This document shows, in pieces, positions 57,932 to 61,768 of a stretch of 64,000 bases of DNA; the stretch's first letter is position 1; each line of letters starts with the position of its first letter. The position numbers were made by a program, and so were the translations under genes. The notes beneath the pieces are model-generated. The model did no database searches and was not told where the DNA came from. It saw only the letters and a program-made list of their open reading frames with translations. Source of the stretch: an uncultured delta proteobacterium (GTDB taxonomy: Bacteria > Myxococcota > Myxococcia > Myxococcales > Anaeromyxobacteraceae); assembly GCA_963828255.1 (NCBI GenBank), contig CAWHDZ010000021.1, forward strand, positions 1 to 64,000, read 5' to 3'.

Positions 57932-58435
57932 ATGAAGATCACGCCGCTCGACATCCAGCAGAAGCGCTTCTCCCGGGCGATGCGGGGCTACGAACGGGAG
58001 GAGGTCGAGGCCTTCCTCTCGCTCGTCGCGTCCTCCTTCGAGGACCTGGTGAAGGAACTCAACTCCCTGCGCGAGGACCTGGCGCGCCGGGACGAGGACA
58101 TCGCCGCCCACCGCGGCCTGGAGCGCACCCTGCAGGAGACCCTGGTGACCGCCCAGAGGGCCAGCGACGAGATCCGCGAGTCGGCCCGGAGGGAGGGCGA
58201 GATCGCCATCGGCGAGGCCGAGCTCCAGGCGGAGAAGATCGTGCAGGGCGCCCACCAGAGGTTCCTGCGGATCGTCGACGACATCCAGGAGATGAAGCGG
58301 CTGCGCGTGCAGTTCGAGTCGTCGGTCCGCTCCCTCGTGGATGGGCACGCCAAGCTGCTCGACACCTTCCGTGACTCGGACATCGGCGACCCGGTCGAGT
58401 ACCTGGCCGGGCGGAAGAAGGGGTCCGCGGAGTAA
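57932..58435 (+). CDS. divIVA: DivIVA-domain protein
   Basis: 'MKITPLDIQQKRF...RGYEREEVEAFL' then a long coiled coil; GGAG SD. Confidence 0.9.
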   Translation: MKITPLDIQQKRFSRAMRGYEREEVEAFLSLVASSFEDLVKELNSLREDLARRDEDIAAHRGLERTLQETLVTAQRASDEIRESARREGEIAIGEAELQAEKIVQGAHQRFLRIVDDIQEMKRLRVQFESSVRSLVDGHAKLLDTFRDSDIGDPVEYLAGRKKGSAE

Positions 58436-58440
58436 CGGTT

Positions 58441-58480
58441 CGAGGACCGATCCCGAGGACCGATCCCGAGGACCGGATCC
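58441..58480. repeat. 13-nt tandem repeat CGAGGACCGATCC x3
   Basis: Units at 58441, 58454 and 58467 (third has one extra G). Confidence 0.9.
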
Positions 58481-58488
58481 GGCGACCG

Positions 58489-58812
58489 TCAGTGCGTCAG
58501 GCGCCAGAGCATGGCCAGGACCCGGTCGCAAATGCCGAGGGCCGGCGTGATGGCACTGGCGGGCAGGTAGCCAAAGGCCTCGGCGACACGGAGGCTCGCG
58601 GCGACCTCGTCGGCGCTTCCCGCGGCCACGCGCCAGAGGTGGATGCGGTCCTTCCCGTTCCGACGGTTCCCCTCCGAGAGGTTCAAGGACACGGATGCGG
58701 CCGCCCGCCGCAGTTGCCTGGCGAGATCCGTATCCCGCCGGCCCAGGCTGGCAAGAGGCGCCTCGAGCGAGCGAATGAGTTCGAGGGAGACATCGAAGGC
58801 TTGAAGTGACAT
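58489..58812 (-). CDS. Four-helix-bundle protein (Avd / 23S rRNA-IVS protein-like)
   Basis: 'LARQLRRAAASVSLNLSEG...AAGSADEV...LRVAEAFGYL', 107 aa, AAGGAG SD, more A/T-ending codons than its neighbours. Confidence 0.85.
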   Translation of the reverse strand: MSLQAFDVSLELIRSLEAPLASLGRRDTDLARQLRRAAASVSLNLSEGNRRNGKDRIHLWRVAAGSADEVAASLRVAEAFGYLPASAITPALGICDRVLAMLWRLTH

Positions 58813-58818
58813 TGGCGG

Positions 58819-58946
58819 CTCCTTTTCGGGTGGGGTTTGCCCCATCCGGCGCAGGGTCCGTGACAGCCCGGCGCGGGATTCACCGATGAAGGACCGCGGG
58901 CTGGCGCGGAGCGTGCGCCTCCAGGCAGGCCCCACCCGAAAAGGAG
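58819..58946. ncRNA. Putative ~128-nt rod-like RNA hairpin in the leader of the four-helix-bundle gene
   Basis: Perfect 17-bp inverted repeat (58819-35/58930-46) enclosing nested stems GGCGCA/TGCGCC, TCCGTG/CGCGGA, CAGCCC/GGGCTG, GCGG/CCGC and TTCA-ccga-TGAA. Expression is not shown. Confidence 0.6.
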
Positions 58947-58950
58947 AGGA

Positions 58951-59041
58951 AACTCGGTCTCCGAACTCGGTCTCCGAACTCGGTCTCCGAACTCGGTCTC
59001 CGAACTCGGTCTCCGAACTCGGTCTCGGAACTCGGTCTCGG
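58951..59041. repeat. 13-nt tandem repeat AACTCGGTCTC(C/G)G x7
   Basis: Five units AACTCGGTCTCCG (58951-59015) then two AACTCGGTCTCGG (59016-59041). Confidence 0.95.
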
Positions 59042-59069
59042 ATCTCAGCCCCGGTCCCGCCCTCCCCCG

Positions 59070-61768
59070 TCAGTGCGCCTCCGCCCAGCTCCCCGCCATC
59101 CCCACCTCGACATCGAGCGGCACCAGCAGCTCCGCCGCCCCCTCCATCGCCCTCCTCACCAGCGCCTCCGCCGGCCCCGCCTCCCCGGCCGGCACCTCCA
59201 GCACCAGCTCGTCGTGGACCTGCAGGATCACCCTCGACGCCAGCCCCTCCGCGGCGAGCGCGCGATCCACCCGGAGCATGGCCACCTTGACGATGTCCGC
59301 GGCCGTCCCCTGGATGGGCGTGTTCACCGCCATCCGCTCGGCAGCCTGCCGGAGCCCGGGATTCCGCGACCGGATGTCGGGCAGCTCCCTCCGCCTTCCC
59401 CAGAGCGTGCGGACCTCTCCCGACTCCCGCGCCGCGGCGACGGTTCCGCCCAGCCAGCGCTTCACCCCCGCGTAGCGGGCGAAGTAGCGATCGATGATCG
59501 CCTGGGCCTCGGCGGGGGGCATGTCGAGCCGCTGCGAGAGGCCGAAGGCCGACAGGCCGTAGGCGATGCCGAAGTTGAGCACCTTGGCCACCCGGCGCTG
59601 GTCCGGAGTCACCTCCGACGCCGGCACGCCGAAGGTCTCCGCAGCGGTCCGGGAGTGGACGTCCTCCCTCGACCGGAAGGACTCGAGGAGCGACGGGTCC
59701 TCCGCGAAGTGGGCCAGGATCCTCAGCTCGATCTGGGAGTAGTCGGCGGAGAGGAGCAGCCTTCCCGGTGGGGCCACGAAGGCCGCGCGGATCCGGCGCG
59801 ACAGCTCGGTGCGCACCGGGATGTTCTGGAGGTTCGGGTCCTGGGAGGAGAGCCTGCCGGTGGCCGCCCCGGCCTGGTTGAAGGTGGTGTGGATGCGCCC
59901 GTCGGCCGGATCGACCAGCAACGGCAGCGCGTCCACGTAGGTTCCCTTCAGCTTGGAGAGCGACCGGTGCTCGAGCACCAGCCGCGGCAGGGGGTGCTCC
60001 TCGGAGAGCTTCTCCAGCACGTCCTGGTCGGTGGAGGGGCCGGTCTTGAGCTTCTTCACCACCGGCAGGCCCAGCTCGACGAAGAGCACCTGCGCCAGCT
60101 CCCGCGTGGAGGCCACGTTGAAGACCCGGCCGGCCGCGGCGTGGATGCGCACCTCCAGCTCCCGCATGGCGGAGCCGAACTCGGCGCTCATCGAGCCCAT
60201 GGCCGCCGCGTCCACCGCGATGCCGGCCTGCTCCATCCCGGCCAGCACCGGCACGAGCGGACGCTCGATCTCGTCGTGAACGCGGGAGAGCCCTCCGTCG
60301 CCGAGCGCGCGGACGAGGGCCGCGGCCAGCGCGGGGAGCAGGGAGGCGGCGGAACCCGCGTGGGCGGCCGTCTCTTCCACCGGGTACGTGGCCGGGTCCC
60401 CGTCACCCCTTCCGGCGTCGGCGGGCGCCGGCGGCAGCTCGACGCCCAGCCGCTCGCGCGCCAGGTCGGCGAGGGCGTGCTCGCGGCGTGCGGTCAGGAG
60501 GAGGTGGCTCGCCAGCTCGGTGTCGATCCCCCGGGCCGGGGCGGGCAGCCCCAGGTGGCGGAGCGCGTGGATCTCCAGCTTGAGGCCGTGCGCATGGATC
60601 TCGACCGCCGGGTCGTCGAGGAGGGGGCGCAGCGCCGCCGCCACCTCCGGGACCGTGAGCTGCGCCGGAGCGCCCAGGTAGCGGTGCTGGATCGGCACGT
60701 ACCAGGAGCGGCCGCCGGCCGCGAGCGCCAGCCCGGCGGGGGGATCCTCCGCGGCGCCGGCGAGGAGAAGGCCGCGCGCATCCCCACCTGGCCGGCTCGC
60801 CGGGCTTCGGCCACGGCCGCGTCGAGCGCACCCCGGGTGAACACCAGCTCGGTGGCGACCGGTGGCTCCGCCGTGGGCGGCGGCGTGGGCGCGGGCAGGT
60901 CCCGCAGGAGCCGCCCGAACTCGAGCTCGGTGAAGAGGGCGCGGGCGCGCTCCGTGTCCACCGGACGCCGCGCCAGGTCGGCCGGGCCGAGCGGGAGCGG
61001 CAGGTCCTCCTTGAGCGCCACCAGGATCCGGTTGAGCCGGATCCGATCGGCCAGCCCCTCGATCTTCTCCTGCAGCTTCGCCCCGCCGCGGGAGACGGCC
61101 TGCGGGATCTCCCCGGTCCGGGCCAGCATGGCCTCGACGGAACCGAAGTGCTTCACCAGCGCGGCCGCGGTCACGTCGCCGACCCCGGGCACGCCAGGGA
61201 CGTTGTCCACCTTGTCTCCGGTGAGCGCCATGAGCTCCACCACCTGGTCGGGGCGCACTCCCAGCTTCTTCTCCACGTCCTCGGTCCGCGTCCACCCTCC
61301 GCGCCCGGCCGCCTCCGCCATGGGGTCGTAGAGCTCGATCCCCTCCCCCACCAGCTGCGCGAAGTCCTTGTCGCCCGTGACGATGACCACGTCGAACCCC
61401 TGGGCGCGGGCCCGCCGGGCCAGCGTGGCGATGACGTCGTCGGCCTCCACCCCGGCCTCCTCGAGGAGCGGCACGTCGAGCGCGCGAACGACCTCCCGCA
61501 CCAGCGGAAACTGGCTCCTGAGTTCCTCCGGCGCCTCGGGGCGGTGGGCCTTGTAGGTGGGGTCGAGCTCGGTGCGGAAGCTCTTGCGGCTCGCGTCCAT
61601 CACCAGCGCCGCGTGGGTGCTTCCCCGCTCTCGCAGGGCCTTGAGCAGCATGGTGGTGAAGCCGTAGACGGCGTTGGTGGGCTGCCCCTTCGTCGTCGCC
61701 AGGTGCGGGATGGCGTGGAAGGCCCGGAAGACGAACCCGGAACCGTCGATGAGTGTGAGCGTGGGCAC
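59070..61768 (-). CDS. polA: DNA polymerase I; apparent -1 frameshift at the G6 run 60738-60743
   Basis: 5' nuclease 'LIDGSG...EADDVIAT...TGDKD...GDKVDNVPGV' in one frame; polymerase 'TGRLSS', 'ADYSQIELR', 'NFGIAYG', 'QVHDEL' in another. Confidence 0.92.

Follow-up and report, generated by a model that had tools for sequence, protein, structure and literature searches.

A multi-copy cassette of a four-helix-bundle gene, a leader hairpin and tandem repeat arrays at gene 3' junctions in Anaeromyxobacteraceae

Introduction

To our knowledge, no function has been assigned to stand-alone genes of the PF05635 family. The closest described elements that carry such a gene are the ORF-bearing 23S rRNA intervening sequences of Coxiella burnetii and Leptospira (S23p, PF05635), which are sporadically present and for which PMC4990558 describes complementary ends enclosing the ORF and a suspicion of poor translation. 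The family has been recorded in CPR rRNA insertions too (bioRxiv 10.1101/2024.02.27.582315). Avd of diversity-generating retroelements (DGRs), the partner of a reverse transcriptase, is reported to be a pentamer that binds an RNA stem-loop beside its own gene (bioRxiv 10.1101/2023.10.23.563531). Two further systems are comparable in other ways. One is the IS10-type sequestration of translation signals, cited in PMC13181058; the other is formed by intergenic arrays of 6-7-nt repeats in Xanthomonas, Nostoc and Beggiatoaceae, described as G-rich on the sense strand just past stop codons and often arranged as inverted pairs (PMC4692102, PMC4679880).

The cassette described here, which lies between divIVA and polA of an uncultured member of the Anaeromyxobacteraceae, has something in common with each of these systems and coincides with none. 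It behaves like an rRNA intervening sequence transferred to the ends of mRNAs, yet it is not one, since it lies between protein genes (in all six copies of its genome), occurs in several copies per genome, has tandem repeats for arms and possesses, apart from these, a leader hairpin whose stem is predicted to take up a strong Shine-Dalgarno sequence. Its protein is predicted to share the fold of Avd, but no reverse transcriptase was found in the genome and none is encoded beside the gene; the identity with a DGR (features in PMC10053308) was rejected on the lack of an RVT_1 match in that genome. As in IS10, transcripts started outside the element are predicted to have their ribosome-binding site concealed in a stem, but the cassette encodes no transposase, and terminal inverted repeats and a target duplication are not visible. 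Unlike the short intergenic arrays of other bacteria, those of the cassette flank a four-helix-bundle gene and change their unit from copy to copy, and the accounts of the former in PMC4692102 and PMC4679880 describe, in the sections concerned with the arrays, no link to such a gene. The variant is apparently unpublished: no description of it was found in the main texts searched, which lie mostly outside subscription journals.

Results

Organization of the divIVA-polA locus

The window is the stretch of 64,000 nucleotides at the start of contig CAWHDZ010000021.1. It belongs to a genome (G000) that is 99% complete; other G numbers denote its relatives, and the genomes are MAGs. divIVA and polA converge on the cassette, in which a repeat array is followed by a 128-nt hairpin, the four-helix-bundle gene and a short inverted array:

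57932..58435, plus strand: divIVA, the left host gene, outside the cassette (PF05103, 134.7 bits)
58441..58480: 3' tandem array, 3.0 copies of a 13-mer, loosely inverted relative to the 5' array
58489..58812, minus strand: four-helix-bundle gene, 107 aa (TIGR02436/PF05635)
58819..58826, minus strand: Shine-Dalgarno sequence of this gene, which is the 3' foot of the hairpin
58819..58946, minus strand: leader hairpin, 128 nt, with compensatory changes, kept in 6 of 6 genomic copies
58851..58865, minus strand: conserved 3' inner-arm motif, a putative variant sigma-54-like -24/-12 element aimed at the gene
58902..58916, plus strand: conserved 5' inner-arm motif, a putative sigma-54-like -24/-12 element aimed outward across the array
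58939..58946, minus strand: anti-Shine-Dalgarno arm, the 5' foot of the hairpin
58951..59039: 5' tandem array, 6.8 copies of a 13-mer
59073..59312, minus strand: 3' end of polA, a host gene, C-depleted by fourfold-site counts

The arrays, gene and hairpin had been proposed from the letters of the window, and repeat, ORF, arm and profile evidence places all of them exactly there, with the hairpin (arms 58819-58841 and 58924-58946) between the gene and the 5' array. Two descriptions in the original prediction stand in part. The arrays are inverted only loosely, with matches at 8 of 13 positions, and 27 bp of pairing is predicted between them here, against 131-173 bp in the copies of four relatives. 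The codon usage of the gene is atypical, but mildly so (GC3 of 0.83 against 0.98 in divIVA); the value of 0.85 for polA is spoiled by a frameshift. This frameshift, caused by one G missing from a run of G at position 60737, is an assembly error, since the contigs of runs X2, X3 and X4, and a relative, have the base. The length of the 3' array (58441..58480) seems to vary between close strains, extra letters being present in the contigs of runs X3 and X4.

The leader hairpin

The hairpin has a predicted energy of -82.6 kcal/mol (z -5.25), and none of 200 shuffled sequences was as stable. It matched no Rfam family at the gathering score, the best hit having 21 bits against the 60 demanded and an E value of 1.4. 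Among 22 leaders aligned without fitting to a model, double changes occur at 4 of 37 pairs and in 13 cells, a level reached by none of 500 shuffles, although the relatedness of the leaders inflates the count; in a model-fitted alignment of 39 leaders, 19 of 37 pairs have double changes. The proposed hairpin leader is supported as a conserved structure by its presence in all six genomic copies and by double changes above all shuffles. G-U pairs outnumber A-C pairs in the fitted alignment (71 vs 9), which favours the sense strand as the RNA.

On RNA read through from the host gene, the Shine-Dalgarno sequence is predicted to be paired with a probability of 0.99, whereas on RNA started inside the stem the value falls to about 0.5 with just -6 kcal/mol. 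Among 34 copies considered, 6 were skipped for want of a start codon or for a short flank, and in 26 of the 28 copies folded the Shine-Dalgarno sequence is paired with the 5' arm at 0.80 or more. For wider homologues the corresponding count is 39 of 65 at 0.8 or more, in a 160-nt window that is too short for the longer Polyangiaceae leaders. Sequestration of translation signals of this kind was reportedly described for IS10 by Davis in 1985, and by the folding model the hairpin would likewise prevent translation of the gene from RNA that enters from a host gene. Protein would then require a transcript begun within the hairpin, or a stem that has been opened. The suggestion that the cassette is read through from polA fares poorly on two counts: polA read-through RNA is predicted to leave the gene untranslated, and in relatives G001 and G006 the cassette faces the opposite way.

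The inner 70 nt of the leader, with the inner motifs, have been lost from three G003 copies and one G011 copy in which the foot remains and the gene is intact, so that an internal promoter is not universal. Sense matches to the hairpin in 14 genus genomes directly precede the start of the gene, save for one split by an insertion, and apart from this split copy no gene-less leader hairpin was found among the best 150 candidates scored per genome. The split concerns a cassette of G003 (loci L259 and L078), which is broken at the start codon by foreign, IS-looking sequence, with leader and gene on separate contigs.

The four-helix-bundle protein

The 107-aa protein matches TIGR02436 with 53.8 bits (cut-off 24) and PF05635 with 53.3 bits (cut-off 33.8), and XCC0516 is matched by protein sequence with an E value of 5e-9. 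Its predicted structure (pLDDT 97) is a four-helix bundle with a TM score of 0.81-0.89 to 2GSC and 2RLD and of 0.82-0.86 to the Avd structures 4DWL and 8UB7, the sequence identity to Avd being 10-11%. No tblastn match to the protein was found in phage and plasmid collections. The dN/dS ratio has a median of about 0.14 against 27 other copies, to be taken as rough since dS comes close to saturation. Judged by this ratio, the gene is under purifying selection, which a benefit to the host would account for equally well. An amino-acid-to-repeat code was also considered and rejected for this subfamily: by eye, near-identical protein cores stand beside different hexamers, and one hexamer is found in both orientations.

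Occupied, empty and inverted sites

There are six copies of the cassette in G000, of which the other five are 70-80% identical to that of the window. In each, a leader of about 130 nt stands right before the start codon and a tandem array precedes the leader. The array unit, a 13-mer in the window and hexamers elsewhere, is mostly CCG plus three bases, in either orientation. Convergent genes flank five of the six copies; the sixth has smc on one side and an SRP54-family gene on the other. Two arrays of different hexamers, inverted relative to each other, were seen upstream of the leader at L002 (G000 C17:61924-62323), where an AT-rich spacer separates them, and at L001.

Homologues occur in 17 of the 41 genomes searched, and none was found in G004, G008, G009 and G012 of the same genus. 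The divIVA-polA site itself is empty, with a junction of 7-24 bp, in 7 of 10 same-genus relatives that have divIVA. In G001 and G006 it holds a cassette that faces the other way and has long, truly inverted arrays, and in G010 an array begins there at a contig end. A contig of run X2 joins 58434 directly to 59062, skipping the cassette, and contigs of runs X1 and X17, from more distant relatives, join across the site as well. Altogether about seven junctions are common to the clade and four of the seven are occupied in both orientations; the glgA junction is empty in G000 and has an array in the sister genome G010. No strand-changing joint, as inversion would leave, is listed in the contigs of eight runs, which, being contigs, carry no weight either way; RNA run X19 gave no coverage of the cassette.

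Some copies are broken: one is frameshifted in G013 and one in G006, G006 has a leaderless copy as well and G003 a split one. At L010 (G010) and L015 (G002) the sequences on the two sides of the cassette correspond to different sites of G000, which either rearrangement between copies or mis-assembly would explain.

Probable copying between sites

In a tree of 31 genes the copies often cluster by genome. Computed over leader plus gene, the identity between different sites is 97.6-98.1% for three sites of G006, 92.9-95.7% for three of G001 and 98.9% for two of G000, while 5 pairs of copies that occupy one and the same site in different species are 67-87% identical. Monophyly of a site was rejected at all four sites tested, with p-AU of 6e-5 or lower. 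In the sister pair G000/G010 alone the copies group by site, which means that copying is not constant. The simplest reading of these sequences is that the sites were colonised long ago and that copies have since been overwritten, flipped and lost; the alternative reading is that the cassette inserted repeatedly at hot spots. Near-identical repeats in MAGs can also be mis-joined.

The wider family and its flanks

In a wider set, 79 loci from species genomes, mostly Myxococcota by title, were collected, some of which are the same DNA as loci already described. Among loci with enough flank, 59 of 70 have a tandem array upstream of the homologue and 20 of 77 have one downstream; an array on either side was found in 62 of 68 loci vs 9 of 126 control windows. 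Complete Sorangium chromosomes show this layout as well. By eye, among the loci listed, members of subfamilies that share about 30% identity likewise come with an array, and a hairpin that is short and of another kind covers their Shine-Dalgarno sequence.

The reading as a compact module that relocates with a conserved structured leader is supported by empty sites, six dispersed copies and both orientations, and equally by arrays beside homologues and covariation of the hairpin. A gene fixed in relatives, bare of repeats and hairpin there and at its homologues, was looked for and is not what the genomes contain.

Other arrangements were noticed among these loci. Two different four-helix-bundle genes stand tail to tail, with a leader and an array apiece, at L113-L115, L079, L084 and L085, and L068 is a head-to-head gene pair with one array common to both. 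At L018 (G025) a classical-type four-helix-bundle gene lies between convergent genes, flanked by inverted heptamer arrays; its leader hairpin is weaker.

A codon footprint in host genes

The polA gene has 23 G to 3 C at the fourfold sites of its last 40 codons and 18 to 8 in the next 40. Over the last 40 codons, G/(G+C) at fourfold sites is 0.71 in 31 gene ends on the cassette or array side vs 0.50 in 44 empty orthologous ends, 3 ends of unknown status having been left out; it is 0.57 vs 0.45 in codons 41-80 and does not differ in codons 121-200. The p-values of this comparison overstate the case because the genomes are related. The shift is present in 6 of 7 genes, and at twofold sites T rises from 7 of 214 to 19 of 149. 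In G000, where the mean over convergent ends is 0.49, a value of 0.84 is reached by 14 of 2819 roughly called gene ends, and cassettes adjoin 5 of these 14.

Genes on the array side are shifted, whereas nadA, which faces the 3' end of the four-helix-bundle gene where there is no array, is not, and neither is dapF, which was predicted beforehand to be unshifted for its position on the gene's 3' side without an array. The exceptions, G002 at site B and G003 at site F, are both damaged copies. Selection for a Rho site on the antisense strand (rho is present in the genome) and mutation of an exposed sense strand both fit the loss of C.

Discussion

The cassette is gained, lost, inverted and replaced at a common set of junctions, and its protein is conserved by selection. 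With roughly even confidence we take this multi-copy cassette at gene 3' junctions to be a selfish passenger copied and flipped by host recombination. Its presence, absence and flipping at the same junctions in relatives make a spread by host recombination likelier than one by a transposase. Gene conversion would start in the leader and gene common to the copies, end in the degenerate CCG-NNN arrays and so overwrite one copy with another, and inverted arrays would permit the cassette to flip. The protein, by analogy with 2GSC and Avd, likely forms an Avd-like pentamer, which would probably bind its own leader hairpin and act in cis on the persistence of its copy. The array side would likely impose stalled or outward transcription on the neighbouring gene, which would lead to the loss of C in its last 80 or so codons. 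Gene conversion covers the overwriting of occupied sites and not the first entry into a new one.

A bolder version of this proposal, which we regard as possible but doubtful, is a selfish element without any catalytic mobility gene, in which the hairpin-bound pentamer holds the transcript or an R-loop over the array and thereby triggers host recombination. The cassette would then be an RT-free relative of DGR Avd and of the rRNA intervening sequences, with the loss of C in neighbouring genes as its footprint.

New sites need some route of entry, and one would exist if the element were non-autonomous and mobilised in trans: a Y1 (RAYT-like) transposase or a reverse transcriptase would recognise the hairpin and bring the cassette back into the same hot spots. 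The hairpin indeed has invariant mismatches and sequence motifs, Avd is the partner of a reverse transcriptase, and G000 encodes one Y1 transposase (L087, C3:20369-20608, RAYT-like, a single gene). We nevertheless consider this explanation unlikely. Of 14 genus genomes, 10 have a single Y1 gene, among them G004 and G012, which are free of the cassette; in G002 and G011, which do have cassettes, no Y1 gene was found. Reverse transcriptase genes (RVT_1) were found in just 3 of the 14, and there was no RVT_1 match in G000, G001, G003 and G006, which are cassette-rich and show the clearest recent copying. By the ORF list there is no transposase within the cassette, the search for one acting in trans having covered the Y1 family. 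No target duplication or fixed end is visible by eye when filled and empty alleles, which come from different species, are compared, and sense hairpin hits in the 14 genomes, one split copy apart, all stand directly before the start of the gene.

Less probable again is a domesticated host device, in which arrays and hairpin, placed at convergent junctions, bring about the termination, stabilisation or RNase III processing of mRNA 3' ends and the protein has a use for the host. Such a role would agree with a dN/dS of about 0.14 and the shifted host codons beside the cassette, with the placement of five of the six G000 copies between convergent genes whose empty junctions have nearly no spacer, and with the ability of the arrays to form stems of 131-173 bp, like those described for rRNA intervening sequences (PMC4990558). 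It is difficult to reconcile with a cassette that is often lost or broken, has empty sites within the clade, was not found in four same-genus genomes and conserves neither its orientation nor its repeat unit.

Sigma-54 promoters have GG at -24 and GC at -12 at a fixed spacing. The inner stem might be a divergent pair of such promoters that makes, on a signal, the mRNA of the protein and an outward repeat RNA, so that the whole would be an inducible RNA-protein system. Motifs like -24/-12 with a variable 4-nt spacer are found outward in 27 and in the sense direction in 22 of 70 leaders, vs 1 and 0 of 834 controls, these counts not being independent because the leaders are homologous. The outward arm fits the consensus, the sense arm of two leaders has the canonical GG, genes for rpoN and rho are present, and the array-side neighbour, read on its antisense strand, is rich in C and poor in G, as a Rho site would be. 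Against this, the sense site mostly has GT instead of GG, the spacers covary between the arms as pairing alone predicts, the Polyangiaceae version of the stem lacks the consensus, and genome-wide the pattern shows no enrichment at the correct spacing beyond codon periodicity. We rate the promoter pair as more improbable than the host device.

Mis-assembly of repeats in MAGs as the main source of the multi-copy, flipped pattern, which the chimeric flanks of L010 and L015, one duplicated G006 locus and the homopolymer error in the window's polA might suggest, is very improbable, since copies differ by 1-30%, independent runs contain gene, leader and arrays at 98-100% identity, and complete Sorangium chromosomes have the same layout.

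What the divIVA-polA locus adds is the leader, locked by prediction, and the codon footprint. It constitutes a testable unit of a protein, its candidate cognate hairpin, a predicted translation lock and empty as well as flipped alleles. If host recombination does spread the cassette without a mobility enzyme, this bears on the origin of rRNA intervening sequences, of DGR Avd and of short intergenic arrays. The shifted codons of host genes flag junctions where a cassette sits now and probably some where one sat before. A second, gene-less family of REP-like palindromes was also noticed in G000, with about six copies (C13:17078, C18:50677, C25:97509, C27:148133, C30:163326 and C40:112834), two of which sit behind strongly G-skewed gene ends.
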